From the IMG/VR virus record IMGVR_UViG_2565956716_000008: DNA of 40,864 nucleotides. One strand, 5' to 3'. The notes beneath the pieces were generated by a model that worked only from the letters and a program-made list of their open reading frames with translations, was not told where the DNA came from and did not search any database. This DNA comes from a virus. Its lineage: Duplodnaviria > Heunggongvirae > Uroviricota > Caudoviricetes. Below are positions 1,568 through 38,203 of the stretch, piece after piece. The first letter of the stretch is position 1, and every line of letters starts with the position of its first letter. The position numbers and the translations under genes were made by a program.

Positions 1568-2143
1568 TCATAATTCTGTGCTGGTGGCAGGAATTAATTT
1601 CTGCCAGATAGCGGAAACATATTTTGCCTGATGACGGGCATCAGCCAGGGCGTTGTGCCGTTCGCCATCGAAAGGCATGTCCATTTTGGGGTCGAATCCG
1701 ATGGAACGCCCAAGCGTAACGATCGTGCGTACATCGTGGTCATTCCAGTACGCCCACGGGCAGATTTGTCCTGCTCGCTCATAAGCTCCACGTAAAATTA
1801 CGTTGTCGAAGGTGGCCCCGTTACCCCAGACTTTTAAATATTTCGTATTGTCTGCGTGCCGGTTAATGAAATGGTTTAGTTCTGAGAGAGCATCGCTGAT
1901 CGACAAAGTATCATCAATACAGATTGCAGCTCGCGCTTCAGGGCTTTGTTTCAACCACCACAGGATGGTATCGCCGTCAGGTGTAGCTCCTTGCTTCATA
2001 GCACTGTCCAGGCTGACAACCGCATAGAATTCTTGTCCGATGTCTCCGGTTTCTGGAGTGAAGAACACCGCGCCAATGGAAACGATCGGTGCATCCTTAT
2101 TTTTCCCCATCGTCTCAAGGTCGATCATTAAGTTGTTCATCAC
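1568..2143 (-). CDS. DEDDh-type 3'-5' exonuclease
   Basis: IDLET motif, GNGATFDNVIL motif and C-terminal H...D motif (HNALADARH); start overlaps upstream stop. Confidence 0.6.
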   Translation of the reverse strand: MMNNLMIDLETMGKNKDAPIVSIGAVFFTPETGDIGQEFYAVVSLDSAMKQGATPDGDTILWWLKQSPEARAAICIDDTLSISDALSELNHFINRHADNTKYLKVWGNGATFDNVILRGAYERAGQICPWAYWNDHDVRTIVTLGRSIGFDPKMDMPFDGERHNALADARHQAKYVSAIWQKLIPATSTEL

Positions 2144-2894: not shown

Positions 2895-3086
2895 CTATTT
2901 CACCTTAATCTCAACATTTCGCAGCTTTAGCTCTACTGGCAGGTCTGACTTTCCGGTTAATGCTAATGCGAGATTTTCTGGAGTAATGAGAGCAGTTATT
3001 GTTTTCCCCCTCGCCAGACGAATAATCATTCGTATCTCGCGATCGTCACATGCTCCCGGTCGAACAATTGATATTTGTCCGATCAT
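2895..3086 (-). CDS. hypothetical small protein (63 aa)
   Basis: ATG at 3086 with AAGGAGA RBS; track ORF extends upstream to 3116. Confidence 0.3.
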   Translation of the reverse strand: MIGQISIVRPGACDDREIRMIIRLARGKTITALITPENLALALTGKSDLPVELKLRNVEIKVK

Positions 3087-3087
3087 C

Positions 3088-3669
3088 TCACTCTCCTTTG
3101 ATGCGAATGCCAGCAAGCCAGTTTCTTATGCCGATATATTCAGCGTTCCTGAAACCGCTTTTTACATATATAAATGGCAAGCGAAGATTGTGACCATTGG
3201 CTGCCAGGTAGTCTTTACAACCCTGTTCGGTGAAACAGCAGGTAACGAATTCATCAATATCTTTCACAGCAACGCGCCGCCATTTTTCTGGTGGTTCCCG
3301 AAAGTTTTCATGAAGTAGTTCGAGACGACGACTTTGGAGTTTATTGGCTTCATTGCCATCTTCATCAACCCAGACAATCCGGTCATAGTCATAATCAGCA
3401 TCAACAACAATTTCGCGCTTTTGATACACACAAAACATAGGGTCTGACGTTATTCGATTATCCTGTGTTCGAATATTTTCACCGATGATGCCAAACGAAT
3501 CTGGCGTAGGTTTTGTCTGTAACTCTTCGATACGTTCAGCCAGCGCCGCGCACTTGGCCTCAGCTTCAGCAAATTTACGCACCAAGTACTCAGCGTTTGT
3601 TTCGTTCACTTTCAGATCTCGCGGTACACATTTCCCGCGAAGAAACCCTTCCATTTCGAAAACATTCAT
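3088..3669 (-). CDS. hypothetical phage early protein
   Basis: 193-aa ORF; start ATG overlaps stop of upstream HD gene (ATGA). Confidence 0.35.
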   Translation of the reverse strand: MNVFEMEGFLRGKCVPRDLKVNETNAEYLVRKFAEAEAKCAALAERIEELQTKPTPDSFGIIGENIRTQDNRITSDPMFCVYQKREIVVDADYDYDRIVWVDEDGNEANKLQSRRLELLHENFREPPEKWRRVAVKDIDEFVTCCFTEQGCKDYLAANGHNLRLPFIYVKSGFRNAEYIGIRNWLAGIRIKGE

Positions 3670-4202
3670 GCGCATTTGCGTAACCCCGATAACTCGTTAA
3701 AACGTTCCATAAACATCCAGTAGGCATGGCCTGGTGACAGTGGAATAACTTTGAACATCTCTGTCGCCGGGATACCTTCCAGTACAGGCCAGAAAGAACC
3801 ATCATCAAGCCCGAGATCGCGGCGTTCGGTTGCCAGCATAATGAGATCGGCATATTTCACTGGCGTGCTCATAACAGGAGGTAACCCGTATTTCTCACGG
3901 ATTACGGCGTCTATTTTTTCTTCCATCCGTTTATAGTCAGGAAGAAGGCGTTTCAGTGGTGCGGGGATGTCCTGGCAATATGCTTCTGTTGCATCATGCA
4001 TTAACGCTTCAAAAGCAAATTCCTGCGGTACCAGCTGGCTGCAAAGCACCGCATGTTGGGCGACGCTGTAGAAGTGTGAAAGATGCCCTGCAAAGCGACA
4101 GATATTTGAAAGGGAAACCGCGATATCGTTAATCACGATGTCGTCTTTATTTATCTTGTCATAATAAAAATGCTTTCCGGAAAAAGTTTTAATAAATGAC
4201 AT
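3666..4202 (-). CDS. HD-domain phosphohydrolase (YfdR-like)
   Basis: H...HD metal-binding motifs (RFAGH, ALMHDATEAY); ATG at 4202 with GGAG RBS; track ORF 5' extension rejected. Confidence 0.6.
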   Translation of the reverse strand: MSFIKTFSGKHFYYDKINKDDIVINDIAVSLSNICRFAGHLSHFYSVAQHAVLCSQLVPQEFAFEALMHDATEAYCQDIPAPLKRLLPDYKRMEEKIDAVIREKYGLPPVMSTPVKYADLIMLATERRDLGLDDGSFWPVLEGIPATEMFKVIPLSPGHAYWMFMERFNELSGLRKCA

Positions 4203-4330
4203 TTTGTTCTCCACGTTATTTGCGCTGCACCGCACTGAATTTTGGTAAAAAGAAGCCCTTACCATCCGGCGATTATTGAGTAAATTACGCTTCCATAAAT
4301 GCCCCCGCAGGGGCATTTTCAGTAATGAAA

Positions 4331-5155
4331 TCAGGCGGTGAAAGTACCAATAAAGGTTTCTACTTTGCTGTCTTTGAATTTCTCAACAAGCAGATCACGA
4401 AATTCGTTAGCCATATCTTCCTGCACCGCTTCCAGCTGAATAATGCGCAGAACCAGTACAGGACGATCGCCAGTGATAATGCTGAGGCGTAATTTAAACG
4501 GACGTTCTTTCAGGCCTTCAAACGGAACGCATTTAAATTCAAATGCCACTGGCATAATGTCTTTGGTCTTCGCTTCGACAGACTCCATCAGGGAGCGTTT
4601 GCCGCTGAAGTCATTATCTTCAAAATCAGCGGTCTGGTTTGCTTCAATCGTGATTTTACGGACTGCCGCAGCCGCTTTTGTTGCCTGAATGGCGTCACCA
4701 TTCGCATCAAAGCCCACAAGGTAGTCGGCCCAGTCTTCAATCCATTCTGCCAGTGACTTCTGGGAGTTACGCTCGCCGTTAACAGACAACAGAGCAGAGA
4801 ACGGTGCTGTCTTTTTCAGTTTGAGAGTGGCGGTGTTATCTGCGTGACCTGGTTCATCAATAGTACCCAGGTTAAGCACACTAACGGCACGCATATTATC
4901 AGCATCGATAAAGCAGCGGGTGCCTTCATCTGCAAGATCTTTAGAATAACGGGTAAAATCATCGATGCTGGCAGTGGAAAGCGCGCCACGGAAACGGAAG
5001 CGATTTAAATTAAATTTTTCCAGATCATGAATGCGGAAATTCTCAGGCAATGCCACAGCATCGGCACCAATCTTACTGATAATTTCATTAACACCCTGAG
5101 CAGAAATAAGAGCATGGATTTGATTAATTGCGGTTGCGTCTAAGTTCTGAGACAT
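4331..5155 (-). CDS. YfdQ-like (DUF2303) phage protein
   Basis: 274-aa ORF matching size and position of YfdQ in the CPS-53-type yfdP-Q-R gene order; recognised by eye only. Confidence 0.5.
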
Positions 5156-13981: not shown

Positions 13982-14087
13982 ATGGTTTTCGCCGAAGATG
14001 ACGACATGATGCTTGCATTTTTCAAAAAATATGGATAAGATTTTCCCAACGATGGGCTTTGTATGTCTACCGTTGATAAGATTTAGG

Positions 14088-14112
14088 AACCCGCCACTGA
14101 GCGGGTTTTTTG
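14088..14112 (+). terminator. rho-independent terminator (tR'-like) downstream of Q-like gene
   Basis: aacccgc-cactga-gcgggtt followed by T-run. Confidence 0.6.
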
Positions 14113-14233
14113 TACCTGTAAACTTGGTGCAGTACAGTAAACACGCTGGTGGTCGTGAATACTGACTTTTTATCTTGCTGGATTTTTAGACAAGGGTTAT
14201 TGGTATGTCATGTTAACCAGAAGGGAAAAAGAC

Positions 14234-14437
14234 ATGCTAAAACAGCAAGATATGACAGAAACCGCCGCCGCAGTCCTTCATTTCTTACCTGCTGACAAGT
14301 GGGTAACGCCACGCATGATGACGAGAACTACCGGAGTAAGCGAAGCCCGGTGCCAGTTAATACTGACTCAGTTAGTTCTGGCGGGTCTGGCGAAGGATAA
14401 CGGCGGGTACGGGAATAAATTCAGACGCTGCCAGTAA
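14234..14437 (+). CDS. hypothetical small protein
   Basis: AAGGGA RBS before ATG at 14234 (track ORF starts 14210). Confidence 0.3.
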   Translation: MLKQQDMTETAAAVLHFLPADKWVTPRMMTRTTGVSEARCQLILTQLVLAGLAKDNGGYGNKFRRCQ

Positions 14438-14587
14438 TGGCGGTTTCCTGCTGTGAAAATGGGCGGCTGGTGGGTGTTGGTAGCACCTGCCAGCCATTCG
14501 CTCATGCTTACTGGTCACAAGCGAACCACGGCCCACTGCTTTAGCGCAAAAGCAGAGTGAGCCTACCAGAGTTACGCTTACTGATCC

Positions 14588-15640
14588 ATGAAAAATACTG
14601 TAAAAATAAACAGTGTTGATTTAATCAACGCTGATTGCCTGCATTTTATTCAGTCCCTGCCTGATGATTCCATTGACCTGATTGTTACCGATCCGCCTTA
14701 CTTCAAGGTGAAACCTAACGGTTGGGACAATCAGTGGAAAGGGGACGAAGATTACCTTAAGTGGCTGGACCACTGTCTGGCCCAGTTCTGGCGGGTGTTG
14801 AAACCTGCCGGAAGCCTTTACCTGTTCTGTGGGCATCGCCTGGCATCTGATATTGAGATCATGATGCGTGAACGTTTCAACGTGCTTAACCATATCATCT
14901 GGGCGAAGCCGTCCGGACGTTGGAATGGGTGTAATAAAGAAAGTCTGCGCGCATATTTTCCTGCCACAGAGCGCGTTCTGTTTGCTGAACATTACCAGGG
15001 GCCATATCGCGGCAAAAGTGACGGCTATGCGGCAAAAGAAAGGGAACTCAAACAGCACATAATGGCACCGCTGATATCGTATTTCAGGGATGCTCGTGCC
15101 GAACTGGGTATAACGGCAAAACAAATTGCCGAAGCCACAGGTAAGAAAAATATGGTTTCCCACTGGTTTGGTGCCAGTCAGTGGCAGTTGCCGAATGAGG
15201 CTGACTATCGGAAGTTACAGGCACTGTTTTCCCGTATAGCGGCAGAGAAGTTTCAGGAACAACAACTGGAACAACCACACCACCAGCTGGTGGCATCTTA
15301 TGATTCACTGAATCGCAAATATTCTGAATTGCTGGATGAGTTTAAATCTCTCCGGCGCTATTTCTCCGTATCAGTCTCCGTGCCTTATACCGATGTCTGG
15401 ACGCATAAGCCCGTTCAGTTCTACCCGGGTAAACATCCGTGCGAGAAACCGGCGGATATGCTCCGGCAAATAATCAATGCCAGTAGTCGACCTGGTGATC
15501 TGGTTGCTGATTTCTTTATGGGATCCGGTTCCACAATAAAAGCAGCAATGGCGCTGGGGCGTCGGGCGTTAGGTGTTGAACTTGAGTCAGAGCGGTTTAA
15601 TCAGACGGTGAAAGAGGTAAGTGAACTGGTGGGGAAATAA
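14588..15640 (+). CDS. DNA methyltransferase, DPPY-motif N6/N4 class
   Basis: VTDPPY motif near N-terminus and FxGSGST AdoMet-binding motif near C-terminus. Confidence 0.7.
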   Translation: MKNTVKINSVDLINADCLHFIQSLPDDSIDLIVTDPPYFKVKPNGWDNQWKGDEDYLKWLDHCLAQFWRVLKPAGSLYLFCGHRLASDIEIMMRERFNVLNHIIWAKPSGRWNGCNKESLRAYFPATERVLFAEHYQGPYRGKSDGYAAKERELKQHIMAPLISYFRDARAELGITAKQIAEATGKKNMVSHWFGASQWQLPNEADYRKLQALFSRIAAEKFQEQQLEQPHHQLVASYDSLNRKYSELLDEFKSLRRYFSVSVSVPYTDVWTHKPVQFYPGKHPCEKPADMLRQIINASSRPGDLVADFFMGSGSTIKAAMALGRRALGVELESERFNQTVKEVSELVGK

Positions 15641-15644
15641 TTCT

Positions 15645-15670
15645 GGTGGCCACGTTGCGTGGCCTTTTTA
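15645..15670 (+). terminator. candidate rho-independent terminator
   Basis: ggccacg-ttg-cgtggcc hairpin followed by ttttta. Confidence 0.5.
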
Positions 15671-15716
15671 TTTCCAACACAGCACCCGCAAATATCGCGA
15701 GGTGAGAGATGACGAA

Positions 15717-16052
15717 ATGCCTCATAACCCAAATACCTGGCCGGACTGGCTGGAGTTGTTTCAGAGCTGGTGGCGTGGAGACACACCGCTGGGTGCAGTG
15801 ATTATGTCGATCGTTATGGCTGGTTTGCGCATCGCCTATTTTGGCGGTGGTGGTGGCTGGAAGCGAAAAACGCTCGAGATTTTGCTATGTGGCGCTCTGA
15901 CGCTGACCTTTGCATCCGCTCTTGAATATGTCGGATGGCCTAAATCGCTTTCTGTTGCCATTGGTGGTGGCGTGGGGCTGATCGGTGTCGATGCTATTCG
16001 TGGGGCTGCAATGCGAGTAATCGGTAACAAATTTGGTAGCTCGAAGGAGTAA
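15717..16052 (+). CDS. holin (lambda S-like, three predicted TM segments)
   Basis: 111 aa, three hydrophobic segments, charged C-terminus, directly upstream of endolysin. Confidence 0.55.
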   Translation: MPHNPNTWPDWLELFQSWWRGDTPLGAVIMSIVMAGLRIAYFGGGGGWKRKTLEILLCGALTLTFASALEYVGWPKSLSVAIGGGVGLIGVDAIRGAAMRVIGNKFGSSKE

Positions 16053-16055
16053 TTT

Positions 16056-16532
16056 ATGCAGGCACTAAATTCCCAGCGTAAAGCTTTCCTGGATATGGTG
16101 GCATGGTCAGAAGGAACGGATAACGGGCGACAACCGACACGTAACCACGGTTATGATGTTATTGTTGGTGGCGAACTGTTCACTGATTACTCCGATCACC
16201 CTCGCAAACTTGTCACGCTAAACCCCAAACTCAAATCAACAGCTGCCGGACGTTACCAGCTTCTTTCACGCTGGTGGGATGCTTACCGTAAACAGCTTGG
16301 CCTGAAAGATTTTTCTCCAGAAAGCCAGGACGCTGTAGCTCTGCAGCAGATTAAAGAGCGTGGTGCTTTACCGATGATTGACCGCGGCAGTATTCGTCAG
16401 GCAATCGACCGTTGCAGCAATATCTGGGCGTCGTTACCTGGTGCAGGTTACGGTCAGTATGAACATAAAATCGGTGACCTGATTGCCCGATTTAAAAAAG
16501 CTGGTGGGGTAGTAAATGAAGCTGAGATATAA
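16056..16532 (+). CDS. endolysin, lambda R-type transglycosylase
   Basis: near-identical by eye to lambda R sequence character (NQRKAFLDM..WSEGTDNGRQ..HGYDVIVGG). Confidence 0.85.
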   Translation: MQALNSQRKAFLDMVAWSEGTDNGRQPTRNHGYDVIVGGELFTDYSDHPRKLVTLNPKLKSTAAGRYQLLSRWWDAYRKQLGLKDFSPESQDAVALQQIKERGALPMIDRGSIRQAIDRCSNIWASLPGAGYGQYEHKIGDLIARFKKAGGVVNEAEI

Positions 16533-16908
16533 GCTGGTTATTGTTGCCTTCGTTGTTAGCGTCATTGGTTCCTTCATCTGGTCTACCGGGCATTACTACA
16601 GCAAATATCAGCACGAAAAGGAGCGTGCTGATGAGGCTGTACGAAATGCTGAATCAGCAACTGCCATTACCCGTAACGTTCTGCAATCACTGCAAATCAT
16701 CAATACAGTTATAGAGGCTAACCAGCATGCAAAACAGCAGATCGCACTGGAGTCACAGAGAACCCAGGAAGATATCAAAGTGGCTGTTGCGGATGATGAT
16801 TGTGCTTCACGTCATGTGCCTGCTGCCGCTGCTGACCGGTTGCGGAAGTACGCGAACAGTTTACGTACCGATTCCGGCGGTACCGTTGCCAGCAAGCCTG
16901 ACTACTGA
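16516..16908 (+). CDS. Rz-like i-spanin
   Basis: N-terminal TM helix then coiled-coil-like region; follows endolysin. Confidence 0.5.
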   Translation: MKLRYKLVIVAFVVSVIGSFIWSTGHYYSKYQHEKERADEAVRNAESATAITRNVLQSLQIINTVIEANQHAKQQIALESQRTQEDIKVAVADDDCASRHVPAAAADRLRKYANSLRTDSGGTVASKPDY

Positions 16909-17065
16909 AACTCCCCAGCCAGTCATTCCCGAGCCGCTGACCTATGGGGCCAGTCTGGATCTGAATGTGAGCCTGCTTTCGGCGTTGGGACAATGCAATA
17001 TTGACAAAGCGGGGATTCGAAATATCGAGATGCGCCGTAACGCTTTGCTGGCAGCAGGCAAATAG
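16793..17065 (+). CDS. Rz1-like o-spanin lipoprotein (overlapped, +1 frame)
   Basis: signal peptide with LLTGC lipobox, proline-rich mature region; starts inside Rz in +1 frame. Confidence 0.45.
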   Translation: MMIVLHVMCLLPLLTGCGSTRTVYVPIPAVPLPASLTTETPQPVIPEPLTYGASLDLNVSLLSALGQCNIDKAGIRNIEMRRNALLAAGK

Positions 17066-17091
17066 TCCGGACAAAGAACAGGAATATATTT

Positions 17092-35039: not shown

Positions 35040-35765
35040 ATGCATCGTATAGACACGAAAACCGCGCAGAAGGATAAGTTCGGCGCGGGTAAGAACGGTT
35101 TTACCCGTGGTAACCCCCAGACCGGCACACCTGCCACCGATCTGGATGATGACTACTTTGACATGTTGCAGGAGGAGCTTTGCAGCGTTGTGGAGGCATC
35201 CGGTGCCAGCCTGGAGAAGGGGCGGCACGACCAGCTGCTTACCGCGCTTCGTGCGCTGCTGTTAAGCCGCAAGAATCCGTTTGGTGATATCAAATCGGAT
35301 GGCACGGTGAAAACGGCTCTCGAAAACCTTGGTTTGGGAGAAGGCTCAGCATTACCTGTTGGGGTGCCTGTTCCGTGGCCTTCAGCCACTCCGCCAACAG
35401 GCTGGCTGAAATGCAATGGTGCGGCTTTTTCTGCTGAAGAATACCCGGAACTGGCAAAGGCTTACCCGACAAATAAATTGCCTGATTTACGCGGTGAATT
35501 TATTCGTGGATGGGATGATGGGCGCGGGGTGGATTCCTCTCGTGGTTTGTTGACATCTCAAGACCATTTATTTGCTTCTCATGGGCACTGGTTTGACAAG
35601 TACTATGCGCTAACAGGTTTTGATCCAACGGGAGGTCGGTTCGTAGTTACGGCTGATGCTTTCGGGGAACTTATTACGGCAAATTCAATTTCTACGGTAT
35701 CGGTTGGTGGTTCTGAAACCCGACCGCGCAACGTCGCATTTAACTATATCGTGAGGGCAGCCTGA
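35040..35765 (+). CDS. tail fibre protein, constant N-terminus plus current variable C-terminus
   Basis: conserved N-terminus [22 protein letters not shown]; recombination site inside at 35317-35342. Confidence 0.7.
35317..35342. other. Hin/Gin-type inversion site (within tail fibre gene)
   Basis: CTCTCGAAAACC TT GGTTTGGGAGAA matches hix/gix-type consensus. Confidence 0.55.
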
Positions 35766-36367
35766 TGAATAAAGCCGTATTAAATAGCGAACTCATTACT
35801 ACAAAGGCAGGAAACATTACCGTTTATAATTTTGATGCTGAGACGAAGGAATATCTTTCCACATCAACCGAATATCTTGTTGTGGGTGTCGGTATTCCGG
35901 CGCATTCCTGTTTAGATGCTCCTGGTATATATAAGGCTGGTTATACTATCTGCCGTTCAGCAGATTTAAAATCATGGGAATATATGCCAGACCATCGCGG
36001 TGAAATCGTTTTTAGCACCGAAACAGGGGAATCAAAAGAAATCACAGCTCCGGGTGATTACCCTGATAATACAACCACTATCGCCCCGTTAACGCCATAC
36101 GATAAATGGGATGGTGAGAAATGGGTGACGGATACCGAGGCACAGCACGGCGCAGCAGTAGATGCAGCAGAAGCACAGCGCCAGTCGCTGATTGATACTG
36201 CAATGGCTTCCATTAGTCTGATTCAGCTGAAATTACAGGCCGGACGGAAGCTGACGCAGGCAGAAACCAACCGAATTAACACGGTGCTGGATTACATTGA
36301 CGCGGTGACGGCAACAGATACCAGCACCGCGCCGGATGTCATCTGGCCTGAACTGCCGGAGGCGTAG
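35765..36367 (+). CDS. tail fibre assembly protein (active orientation)
   Basis: 200 aa, Tfa-type C-terminus. Confidence 0.65.
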   Translation: MNKAVLNSELITTKAGNITVYNFDAETKEYLSTSTEYLVVGVGIPAHSCLDAPGIYKAGYTICRSADLKSWEYMPDHRGEIVFSTETGESKEITAPGDYPDNTTTIAPLTPYDKWDGEKWVTDTEAQHGAAVDAAEAQRQSLIDTAMASISLIQLKLQAGRKLTQAETNRINTVLDYIDAVTATDTSTAPDVIWPELPEA

Positions 36368-36791
36368 GCCATTCAATATCTGGCGCACTGGAGGTATCGA
36401 CCAGCTCCAGTGCGTCCAGATAATCCAGCCACAAATTATATTGTGCCAGTTCCTCACCTTTCAGACGACCAATAGCGGCTTTACCGGGCCATTGCTTACT
36501 GTTCATGTATTCGTTGGCCTGGTTAATTAGTAGCTGTCTTTCTGATTCAGTAATTTCAATAAGTTCTTCATGCGTGGGTGGAGGAATATCTGCCCACGCA
36601 GGCAGCCCATCATCTCCGGCAATACGGATTTTTCCTTGTGGCGGTTCAGCCATAAACTCACTGATAATATTTTGATTTACTTCCTTAGCGTCTGATAAAT
36701 CCCATCCCTCTGATTTATATTTATCAATCATATCCACAGGGAAAAAAGCATTATGCCTTGCGCTATAAACATATTCGTTCATATAAATCAC
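36339..36791 (-). CDS. tail fibre assembly protein (alternative orientation)
   Basis: 150 aa, convergent with other Tfa, similar C-terminal motif. Confidence 0.65.
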   Translation of the reverse strand: MIYMNEYVYSARHNAFFPVDMIDKYKSEGWDLSDAKEVNQNIISEFMAEPPQGKIRIAGDDGLPAWADIPPPTHEELIEITESERQLLINQANEYMNSKQWPGKAAIGRLKGEELAQYNLWLDYLDALELVDTSSAPDIEWPTPPAVQAR

Positions 36792-36802
36792 CCTGAATAA
36801 AA

Positions 36803-37171
36803 TTACTCACCAACAGCCCACCAACTGTAATTCATCGATACCGTGTCGCTGGTTGATGACGTTCTGTAAGCAGAATTAAAGCCGGTTAACGTTGGGCCTT
36901 CTGCAGTCATCACGAACCCTCGCCCAGCGCCTAAAGGCGCACCGCCATCACCAGAATGAGTAAGCATGGCGCAGTCCGCTTTTTTGGGGAAAGGGATGCT
37001 GAATGTAATTCTCATTGTTTGCGTCGATAATGTCGGCGTAACCGCACCACGACCATATTGCAGGATTTTCCCGTTGGGTAATTTCATCCATCCATCACCA
37101 CTGGCAAAAGAGGCCATGTCCGGTATCTGATTTTCCCCTGTCCCCACATCCCGTTTTGCCGCTTCTCCCAA
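36803..37171 (-). CDS. alternative tail fibre C-terminal segment (promoterless, fused on inversion)
   Basis: open frame runs into inversion site; in-frame with fibre constant part after inversion. Confidence 0.5.
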   Translation of the reverse strand: MGEAAKRDVGTGENQIPDMASFASGDGWMKLPNGKILQYGRGAVTPTLSTQTMRITFSIPFPKKADCAMLTHSGDGGAPLGAGRGFVMTAEGPTLTGFNSAYRTSSTSDTVSMNYSWWAVGE

Positions 37172-37188
37172 ACCAACCTTTCAAATAT
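37163..37188. other. Hin/Gin-type inversion site (distal)
   Basis: TTCTCCCAAACC AA CCTTTCAAATAT; reverse complement shares 14 nt with proximal site. Confidence 0.5.
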
Positions 37189-37247
37189 TTTTCTGAATCA
37201 GGTGATATTTCGCCTCTTCTCCTGTTTTTACAACAGGAGAAGCACTC

Positions 37248-37811
37248 ATGATTTACGGGTATGTTCGTGTATCAACAAATCATCAGGATACAGAGTTGCA
37301 ACGTCTTGCACTTGAGTCAGCTGGCTGTGAGCGAATTTATGAAGAATATGCCAGTGGCAGAACAGCTAATCGCCCTGTGTTAAAGGAATTAATTACGGTG
37401 ATGAAAAGTGGAGATGAGTTGATTGTCTGGAAGTTAGATCGGATAGGGAGAAATGTGCTGCATGCGCTATTGATGTTTCAAAATCTGCACGAAAAAGGTG
37501 TTAATTTTCGGAGTATTACAGATGGCGTAGACCTGAAAACAGCAAGTGGTCGCTATAATTTCCGTAATATTCTTTCTGCTGCGCAGTATGAATCTGATTT
37601 GAATAGCGAGCGAACTTTAGCTGGTTTGGCTATTGCCAGATCCAAAGGCCGGATTGGTGGGCGTAGACCGAAGTTTAGCGACGAGCAGTGGCAACAGATG
37701 GGAGCGCTCATAGCGGCAGGGAAATCACGGCGTTATGTTGCACGTATCTATAACGTTGGGCTATCAACCCTATATAAACGATTTCCTGTTACTGGCATTC
37801 AAACGAAATAA
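37248..37811 (+). CDS. pin: Pin/Gin/Hin-family serine DNA invertase
   Basis: N-terminal YVRVSTNHQ catalytic serine motif, C-terminal HTH; adjacent to invertible segment. Confidence 0.85.
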   Translation: MIYGYVRVSTNHQDTELQRLALESAGCERIYEEYASGRTANRPVLKELITVMKSGDELIVWKLDRIGRNVLHALLMFQNLHEKGVNFRSITDGVDLKTASGRYNFRNILSAAQYESDLNSERTLAGLAIARSKGRIGGRRPKFSDEQWQQMGALIAAGKSRRYVARIYNVGLSTLYKRFPVTGIQTK

Positions 37812-37954: not shown

Positions 37955-38203
37955 TTAGTGAACAAACCACTCGTCAGCAGATTCCCAGGTATCTTTCAGA
38001 GTCTCCTGAACAAAAGTTTTTGCAGAATCCTTATCTGCGGTGCGTGTAACAGAAAGGCCATCGTTGCTGGTGGCTTTTACGATCACCTCTACATCGTCAT
38101 AACGTTTACTGATGCGTCGGGTTAATTCTTCCTTTAACGCATCCACAGCACCGGTTGGCATTTTAGTCATTTTTTCTTTGGCTATGCAGATTTCAATACG
38201 CAT
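37955..38203 (-). CDS. DinI-like SOS-response protein
   Basis: 82 aa, MRIE...[10 protein letters not shown] DinI signature; LexA boxes in promoter. Confidence 0.7.

Follow-up and report, generated by a model that had tools for sequence, protein, structure and literature searches.

Tail fibres are the elements by which a phage meets its host, and the locus examined here raises the question of whether two alternative fibre ends, encoded side by side on opposite strands, constitute an invertible DNA switch, and of which enzyme would turn it. The window, that is, the whole stretch of 40,864 nucleotides of viral DNA that was analysed, holds this locus at positions 35317-37188. On the sequence evidence, a DNA switch of the invertible tail-fibre type at these positions is real and probably active, and we place the probability of the whole reading, a gene-fusion switch of the Mu-G/e14-P type in an apparently complete Escherichia coli prophage integrated at dusA, at about 0.88. 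The kind of switch is ordinary and already well understood, and the locus is a further example of it. The elements of the switch are the following.

35040..35765, plus strand: tail-fibre gene as it now stands, 241 aa, composed of a constant part Sc (35040-35330) and a variable part Sv (35331-35765) with a collar-type receptor-binding domain.
35317..35342, plus strand: left crossover site, CTCTCGAAAACC-TT-GGTTTGGGAGAA, the core TT (35329-35330) being bases 2-3 of codon Leu97.
35765..36367, plus strand: chaperone U for Sv, 200 aa, TfaE-like, now in the expressed orientation (Caudo_TAP, E=2.9e-31; phrog_105, tail fibre assembly).
36339..36782, minus strand: alternative chaperone U', 147 aa from ATG 36782, silent now (Caudo_TAP, E=2e-31; phrog_188).
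36803..37174, minus strand: silent alternative fibre C-terminus S'v with a gp53-like C-terminal domain (Gp53-like_C, PF21882, E=7.5e-13).
37163..37188, plus strand: right crossover site, TTCTCCCAAACC-AA-CCTTTCAAATAT, core AA at 37175-37176.
37248..37811, plus strand: serine DNA invertase, 187 aa, catalytic Ser9, outside the invertible segment (Pfam Resolvase and HTH_7).

The host element is integrated at dusA and is an apparently complete prophage of approximately 39 kb, whose head is HK97-like and whose contractile tail is Mu-like. Its ORFs are colinear with a full set of head, tail and lysis genes, and the tail and baseplate genes are of the Mu type, with homologues of gp44-48. The sequenced phage SKA5 (OR670062.1) is an excised form of this prophage family. 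No specific description of a switch in dusA prophages was found in the literature, where one report on dusA (PMC11577772) concerns Pseudomonas.

The two crossover sites lie exactly where the first-pass annotation had placed a pair of inverted Hin/Gin-type sites. Each is 26 bp long and consists of 12-bp half-sites around a common 2-bp core, and the pair stands in inverted orientation. The reverse complement of the right site reads ATATTTGAAAGG-TT-GGTTTGGGAGAA, and with both sites read in the same orientation their core dinucleotide is TT, as had also been claimed; such identity of the cores is what inversion requires. The inner half of the right site is the same as that of the left site and its outer half is degenerate. 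The 14-mer TTGGTTTGGGAGAA, common to both sites, occurs in exactly two copies on opposite strands of the 40.9-kb window, in which no further copy was found at two mismatches (shuffle mean 0.32). The longest inverted repeat between 34900 and 38000 is the site pair itself (20 nt, 90% complementary, 1818 nt apart), and the left site is the sole match to the 26-bp Hin-family site pattern, for which 100 shuffles gave 0 matches; other site matches at three mismatches are at chance level. A multi-inversion shufflon with extra or quasi sites was also considered and rejected, as half-site and full-site pattern searches gave two sites only.

Comparison with related loci places these sites in a known lineage. 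The left site is identical at 26/26 positions to pixL of the K-12 element e14 and is the same in six related loci, while the right site is identical to e14 pixR in its inner half and core and matches it at 6/12 positions in the outer half. Homology among E. coli genomes stops exactly at 37162/37163, the edge of the right site, and the core AAACCAACCTTTT of that site is kept in the closest relatives of the invertase. Distal partner sites were sought in 14 related loci; Morganella L012 alone gave an exact inverted match, about 1.85 kb off, and invertibility is therefore not extended to the whole clade.

What the segment between the sites encodes can be deciphered from both of its orientations. 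In the current one, the fibre gene matches Pfam Collar (PF07484, E=1.8e-15) and the PHROG tail fibre and tail collar fibre families, and the relatives of the collar-type tip by sequence among solved structures are the T4 gp37 tip (2xgf) and gp12. The chaperone gene U that follows shares 87% nucleotide identity with K-12 tfaE, and U and U' overlap tail-to-tail by 29 bp. Inversion in silico yields an open fibre frame of 220 aa, which bears out the proposal that a flip joins the fibre N-terminus in frame to the alternative C-terminus. The constant part had been put at about 96 aa ending in ENLGLGE and this is approximately right, since the crossover falls within codon 97 and the 241-aa and 220-aa fibres have residues 1-101 in common, with ENLGLGE at the end of the common part. 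The constant N-terminus is in this manner fused in frame to either variable C-terminus, each of which is followed by its own Caudo_TAP chaperone in a tail-to-tail arrangement, as in the Mu G-segment type. The alternative chaperone, given earlier as 36339..36791, does turn to the expressed orientation, but its start is most likely the ATG at 36782 rather than the GTG at 36791, giving 147 aa, and relatives are annotated at 444 nt. S'v lacks its own start codon outside the segment, and an in-frame TGA at 37181-37183 closes its frame just past the site. One tip falls in the family Collar and the other in the unrelated Gp53-like_C, and these two receptor-binding domains would be expected to confer different host ranges.

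The invertase is a full-length small serine recombinase with a resolvase catalytic domain bearing the nucleophilic serine and a C-terminal helix-turn-helix (Resolvase, E=3.3e-36; HTH_7, E=7.3e-12; phrog_125 DNA invertase, E=1e-72), and its catalytic set Y5/R7/S9/D64/R65/R68 aligns with Gin and PinE. Against solved structures the best match is Gin (3uj3, E=1e-56), with gamma-delta resolvase far behind (1e-21). The gene is located just outside the segment, the centre of the right site being 72 bp upstream of its ATG, and the same layout of right site and then invertase is seen in pinE and in the clade of this invertase. The protein is 100% identical to WP_000639149.1 of other genomes and to the invertase of phage SKA5, and is conserved at 100% in hundreds of genomes. 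The switch had been described as driven by Pin, and of this the adjacent intact serine invertase stands but its identity as PinE does not: the two share 56% over 180 aa by BLASTP and 54% in alignment, as measured against the 64-81% that members of the clade share with the window invertase. In 13 clade members the helix-E motif is GRYNFRNILSAAQYESDLNSERT without exception, where PinE has GRFFFHVMGALAEMERELIVERT. By these comparisons the invertase belongs to a separate, uncharacterised sister clade within the Hin/Gin/Cin/Pin family, not to PinE; the members come from E. coli dusA prophages, phages SKA5 and mEpX1, Kluyvera, Trabulsiella, Morganella, Erwinia, Citrobacter, Shimwellia and Apirhabdus. 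In NCBIfam, a family-level name was found for no part of the switch.

By analogy with the Hin/Gin family, dimers of the invertase, presumably the one encoded in cis, would bind the two 26-bp sites at 35317-35342 and 37163-37188, cut both at the central TT/AA, turn half of the complex by 180 degrees and religate, leaving the approximately 1.84 kb between the sites inverted. The promoter and the first 97 fibre codons would stay in place throughout. The present orientation would then give the constant part with the collar-type tip followed by the TfaE-like chaperone, and the flipped orientation the constant part with the gp53-like tip in frame followed by a TfaP-like chaperone, and the virions released by a lysogen population would bear one or the other receptor-binding tip.

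The finding of one orientation only had been named in the first-pass annotation as the argument against such a switch; both orientations occur in an otherwise identical prophage. E. coli M8 and RSHH22/SK6988 carry the same prophage, which shares with the window an invertase of 100% identity and both sites at 26/26 positions. Their flanks are 100% and 99.98% identical, and between these the segment of 1827 bp, itself 100% identical, lies inverted, its breakpoints falling within the 15-bp repeat. The cassette pair of these sibling genomes differs from that of the window. The window's own pair occurs in e14-type elements at approximately 95% identity, in either orientation, next to pinE; of 5426 complete E. 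coli genomes, only APEC37 and CT02 join the exact pair to the window invertase, both in the orientation of the window, and the flipped state of this combination was not found in that set. From the shared orientation of the window, APEC37 and CT02, together with the degeneracy of the right site in its outer half and the weak evidence for an enhancer, it could be argued that the locus is a frozen relic whose sites and gene are kept through recent descent only, flipping having ended in the source strain. We consider this the least probable of the alternatives, a very slight chance indeed, given that near-identical genomes with the very sites and invertase of the window differ by a flip and that collar- and gp53-type cassettes are both common beside the invertase: 17 records of genomes with the window invertase run into a collar-type cassette, and about 20 among the records listed run into a gp53-type one.

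A segment that does flip may nevertheless be flipped mainly in trans, by PinE, by PinQ/R-like or by other prophage invertases, the adjacent invertase being weak, tightly repressed or redundant. PinE and PinQ have both been found experimentally to invert the e14 P segment at the repeat TTGGTTTGGGAGAAGG, which is the same in the window (PMC12529663), and the full agreement of the left site with pixL points in the same direction. Between the sister strains ES7 and ES8 an e14-type segment is cleanly flipped despite an adjacent pinE cut to 41 codons, so that the flip there must have been made in trans by another invertase, and the maker of the flip between M8 and RSHH22 could also be another invertase in trans. 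Moreover, the Shine-Dalgarno sequence of the window invertase is buried in a hairpin of -17 kcal/mol, and a strong promoter is lacking. On the other hand, this invertase is full length with all catalytic residues and is invariant in the hundreds of genomes mentioned above, and the architecture near the site, including the outer half-site, is kept with the enzyme across genera, which favours a working pair in cis. Flipping mainly in trans is consequently regarded as possible but rather unlikely, and flipping in cis and in trans are compatible, not exclusive.

A further alternative concerns the beneficiary of the switch rather than its operator. Inversion of the e14 P segment is reported to give rise to the chimeric protein StfE2, which blocks adsorption of T2 (PMC12529663), and the segment in the window is homologous to that P segment and has the same repeat; one orientation might accordingly serve the lysogen, not the virion, through a protein derived from the fibre that keeps other phages from adsorbing. 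This is judged very unlikely for the window. The start codon of StfE2 in e14 is outside the segment on the invertase side, whereas no in-frame ATG is found outside the site in the window, and expression of a late tail gene is not expected in a lysogen. A chimeric reading frame of the StfE2 type entering from the invertase side was rejected, its frame being shut by the TGA noted above. As the prophage looks complete, a role in the virion is the simpler reading.

The control of the invertase may involve two more elements, both predicted.

37216..37242, plus strand: palindrome and predicted RNA hairpin, CTTCTCCTGTT-TTTAC-AACAGGAGAAG, 27 nt.
37266..37337, plus strand: candidate recombinational enhancer, whose position is homologous to that of the enhancer annotated in P1 cin (gene nt 19-90).

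In the predicted fold, the hairpin buries the invertase Shine-Dalgarno AGGAG (37235-37239) with a free energy of -17.3 kcal/mol (z = -4.0; 0/200 shuffles as good). It is kept in six loci of the subclade of about 80% identity, with one compensatory change of C:G to T:A, and the outer hexamers of the palindrome, TTCTCC/GGAGAA, are those of the crossover half-site. The hairpin may be functional, and could allow translational limitation or autoregulation via the invertase itself. A search of the stretch from the right site to the ATG gave no sigma-70 promoter for the invertase with a score of 9/12 or more; a hand-picked candidate, TTCAAA-N18-GATATT, reached just 8/12 and was rejected. No convincing intrinsic terminator was found between U and the invertase.

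The candidate enhancer has two Fis-like 15-mers, 37270-37284 and 37318-37332, placed 48 bp apart. The genes cin, gin and pinE have 15-mers in common at nt 23-37 and 71-85, and those of the window agree with cin at 13/15 and 11/15 positions, the second being without the G at -7. Among 13 clade members synonymous divergence is lowest at codons 5-14, a dip that could equally reflect translation-initiation constraints, and nothing clear is seen at the expected second Fis site. The residues of Hin that contact Fis and the enhancer are K47, R48, K51, Q151, R154 and L155 (PMC3798978); at these positions the window invertase has K46, E47, T50, Q, A and L, so that 3/6 are kept, with E47, T50 and the alanine at Hin-154 as the changes, in a pattern that varies within the clade. 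It also has Asn at Hin F105 and Arg at H107, in a helix E that is resolvase-like and invariant in the clade. The substitution H107Y is reported to relax enhancer control in Hin (PMC3798978), as are changes at F105 (PMC4513852). Dependence of the window switch on Fis may be expected from its family. Taken together, helix E, the loss of 3/6 contacts, the degenerate second Fis site and the palindrome over the ribosome-binding site hint that control in this clade departs from the Fis/enhancer paradigm, a proposition that we hold to be doubtful. This change of the clade at the Hin residues mediating Fis/enhancer control is the sole part of the locus that a specialist might not predict.

In practical terms, hundreds of E. 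coli genomes carry a pair of short fibre ORFs, an "orphan" gp53-like ORF and a "recombinase family protein" that can be read as one working unit, and assemblies that differ here alone as products of a programmed flip, not of misassembly. A common and apparently inducible family of dusA prophages can show two receptor-binding tips from one lysogen, and the crossover site delimits the fibre-tip cassettes that are exchanged with P2-like and lambdoid phages.

With reference to known systems, the match to the e14 and Mu G-segment paradigm asserted at first reading holds, and the pixL and pixR agreement described above is part of it. The P segment of K-12 e14 (ymfQ-stfP-tfaP-tfaE-stfE-pinE) has the gene order of the window from the YmfQ baseplate gene to the invertase, the same tail-to-tail chaperones with a 29-bp overlap and a silent fibre end. 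Its left site, the inner half and core of its right site and the repeat TTGGTTTGGGAGAAG are identical to those of the window, its nucleotide identity reaches 96% in the constant fibre part and 87% in tfaE, and its segment of 1.8 kb compares with approximately 1.84 kb. Unlike e14, the window has an invertase just 54-56% identical to PinE and a right outer half-site matching at 6/12; its S'v/U' cassette differs from that of K-12, which lies in the opposite orientation, and its host element is a full-length dusA prophage as against a decayed icd-linked one. The StfE-type start codon that e14 has outside the segment is absent from the window. SKA5 and the dusA prophages of E. coli APEC37, CT02, M8, RSHH22 and H10407 belong to the window's own prophage family, with a 100% identical invertase, the two sites of the window, the dusA-linked integrase and the DinI module, and in this family the segment cassettes vary by strain (86-97% identity or replaced), as does the orientation.

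The Mu G segment with Gin and the P1 C segment with Cin share with the window a constant Sc that is joined to one of two variable ends, Sv or Sv', and a chaperone for each of these, U or U', as well as a serine invertase gene just outside the segment and 26-bp sites with a 2-bp core. Their segments measure 3 or 4.2 kb, against 1.8 kb in the window, where the fibre is short (220-241 aa) and the invertase 51-53% identical to Gin and Cin; in P1, cin stands on the other side of the segment relative to its site, and the Fis enhancer that is proven for Gin and Cin is a candidate in the window. Hin/hix of Salmonella has the recombinase family and the 26-bp site design in common with the window, and the outer half of hixR, the invertase-proximal site, is degenerate, as in the right site of the window. 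The proven enhancers of Hin and P1 Cin are at the 5' end of the recombinase gene, with the candidate element of the window at the homologous position. Hin, however, flips a promoter, whereas the switch in the window swaps coding ends, and the Hin regulatory residues R48, K51, F105, H107 and R154 are replaced in the window invertase. The common pixL site and the trans flipping in ES7/ES8 hint that the window invertase might be interchangeable with Gin, Cin, Pin and Hin.

Both crossover sites of the tail-fibre region were found by sequence reading exactly at the positions claimed for them in the first-pass annotation, whose observation of an invertible switch is confirmed and whose interpretation is supported, with qualifications on the enzyme, trans action, the enhancer and host ranges.

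Features of the invertible segment and the adjoining invertase
35040-35765: fibre gene, 241 aa, C-terminal part a Phage Tail Collar domain
35317-35342: left crossover site, CTCTCGAAAACC-TT-GGTTTGGGAGAA
35765-36367: first chaperone, 200 aa, Caudo_TAP
36339-36782, strand opposite the fibre gene: second chaperone, silent, Caudo_TAP
36803-37174, strand opposite the fibre gene: start-less silent fibre end, Gp53-like_C domain
37163-37188: right crossover site, TTCTCCCAAACC-AA-CCTTTCAAATAT
37248-37811: serine recombinase (invertase), 187 aa, outside the segment, Resolvase and HTH_7 domains

The site pair is the longest inverted repeat of the region; the 14-mer common to both sites occurs once on each strand of the window, and a tolerance of up to two mismatches brings up no third copy; a degenerate 26-bp Hin-family pattern matched the left site alone (0 matches in shuffles). 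Since searches for further half-sites gave only chance-level matches, a shufflon was rejected in favour of a simple two-site switch.

Flipping the segment in silico between the two core dinucleotides yields an open fibre of 220 aa, in which residues 1-101 are unchanged and the remainder is the gp53-like end. From the invertase side the silent cassette is unreadable, because an in-frame TGA at 37181-37183 closes the frame. At this position (locus 5352 in E. coli APEC37), APEC37 has lost the TGA through a single G-to-C in the right site's outer half (ATATTTCAAAGG), and PGAP therefore carries the silent gp53-like ORF on to an ATG overlapping the invertase start codon. The sequence relatives of the fibre C-terminal part are the T4 gp37 tip and gp12, and solved structures hold no relative, by sequence, of the Gp53-like_C domain; from these two unrelated tip domains we infer two host ranges. 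The chaperone genes overlap tail-to-tail by 29 bp (36339-36367), as do tfaP and tfaE in e14 of K-12, and an 18-nt inverted repeat mid-segment (36286-36303 / 36412-36429) is accounted for by their homologous C-termini, LDYIDAV and LDYLDAL.

From about 0.58 in the baseplate genes, GC content falls to 0.40-0.50 at the variable fibre part and beyond, and homology to P2-like phages starts at the left site, so that the fibre tips are read as cassettes that can be exchanged, with the site as their boundary. The window's cassette pair also occurs in e14-type elements (about 95% identity), directly joined to the constant part and turned either way. In the collar-type tip (35530-35711), megablast matches nothing in APEC37 to a 180-bp stretch, the APEC37 fibre gene being annotated as a truncated pseudogene; the tip cassette is locally mosaic here.

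The strongest evidence of flipping is drawn from genome comparison, that of E. coli M8 with RSHH22 and SK6988, all of which have the prophage integrated at dusA and share the accessions of the flanking proteins. The flanks align at 100% and 99.98% nucleotide identity while the internal 1827 bp are inverted at 100% identity, the alignment overlap being confined to a 15-bp repeat; in these strains both sites are 26/26 as in the window and the invertase is 100% identical to its own. Between the sister strains E. coli ES8 and ES7, an e14-type segment with the window's cassette pair (locus 2918-4789) is cleanly flipped; the adjacent pinE is cut to 41 codons in both (remnant 4844-4966), and that flip must therefore have been made in trans. 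For this reason the M8/RSHH22 flip is not taken as proof that the cis-encoded invertase acted, and trans-acting invertases may contribute to flipping. What is left of pinE is precisely the 5' segment in which Cin has its enhancer, and ES7/ES8 suggest a recombinase supplied in trans with the cis enhancer retained. Experimentally, the e14 P segment was inverted by both PinE and PinQ at the repeat TTGGTTTGGGAGAAGG (PMC12529663), the first 15 bases of which are also in the window.

The window amounts to a nearly entire prophage (about 39 kb), which ends in a Panacea-domain gene at attL and an integrase adjoining dusA and pspG. The colinear APEC37 prophage encodes terminase, portal, HK97-type protease and capsid, sheath, tube, tape measure and Mu gp44-48-type baseplate genes. 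Among sequenced phages, Escherichia phage SKA5 is an excised form of this prophage family; its invertase, annotated as "DNA invertase", matches that of the window exactly, and its integrase adjoins a short 5' fragment of dusA, as expected of attP. The dusA-specific integration module, made up of a DinI-like gene plus a tyrosine integrase, lies between invertase and dusA (37955-38203 and 38265-39362, minus strand; 39451-40488, plus strand). At the attL end, the Panacea/SocA antitoxin-domain gene (1-573) is overlapped by a 139-aa ORF (570-989) for which Pfam gave no match, and the two possibly form a toxin-antitoxin or defence pair. An N6/N4 DNA methylase gene (14588-15640, 350 aa) directly upstream of the holin lies in a stretch (14075-17090) unmatched in the APEC37 prophage and is hence a strain-specific moron; another stretch missing from APEC37 holds, in the early region, an Rv2179c-like 3'-5' exoribonuclease domain protein (1568-2143, minus strand; E=1e-75).

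The invertase gene lies 72 bp from the right-site centre and its product has the full set of catalytic residues. The description "Pin-driven" holds insofar as the enzyme is a Pin relative; PinE itself is ruled out by 56% identity (Cin about 53%, Gin 51%). It groups with enzymes of 64-81% identity from Kluyvera, Trabulsiella, Pseudocitrobacter, Shimwellia, Apirhabdus, Morganella, Erwinia and Citrobacter, and with that of phage mEpX1 (74%).

Immediately upstream of the invertase ATG, a 27-nt palindrome (37216-37242; -17.3 kcal/mol, z = -4.0) buries the Shine-Dalgarno sequence; the six closest clade members retain it, one of its base pairs showing a compensatory change. Weaker hairpins of this kind lie ahead of pinE, cin and the mEpX1 invertase gene, and the palindrome is presumably a device holding invertase translation low. 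Its outer hexamers, TTCTCC/GGAGAA, are also those of the crossover half-site.

With regard to the enhancer, that of Cin is annotated at cin nt 19-90 (P1 record), and cin, gin and pinE have two common Fis-like 15-mers (nt 23-37 and 71-85, 48 bp apart), of which the window's gene keeps 13/15 and 11/15 positions, the second without the G at -7. Across the clade, synonymous sites diverge least at codons 5-14 (0.30 vs about 0.6 elsewhere), the second site showing no distinct minimum, and the Fis-enhancer of this switch is an unconfirmed candidate on which inversion may or may not depend.

Overall, the switch belongs to a very well-known kind, and at least one phage record already annotates it accordingly; its sole mildly unexpected part is the divergent invertase clade together with a possible departure from Fis/enhancer control. 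Three of the six Hin residues reported for Fis/enhancer activation (K47, R48, K51, Q151, R154 and L155; PMC3798978) are kept in the window's invertase, and the helix-E stretch TASGRYNFRNILSAAQYESDLNSERT is invariant in all 13 aligned genomic clade members (the window and 12 loci), where the classical enzymes have GRFFFHVMGALAEMERELIVERT.
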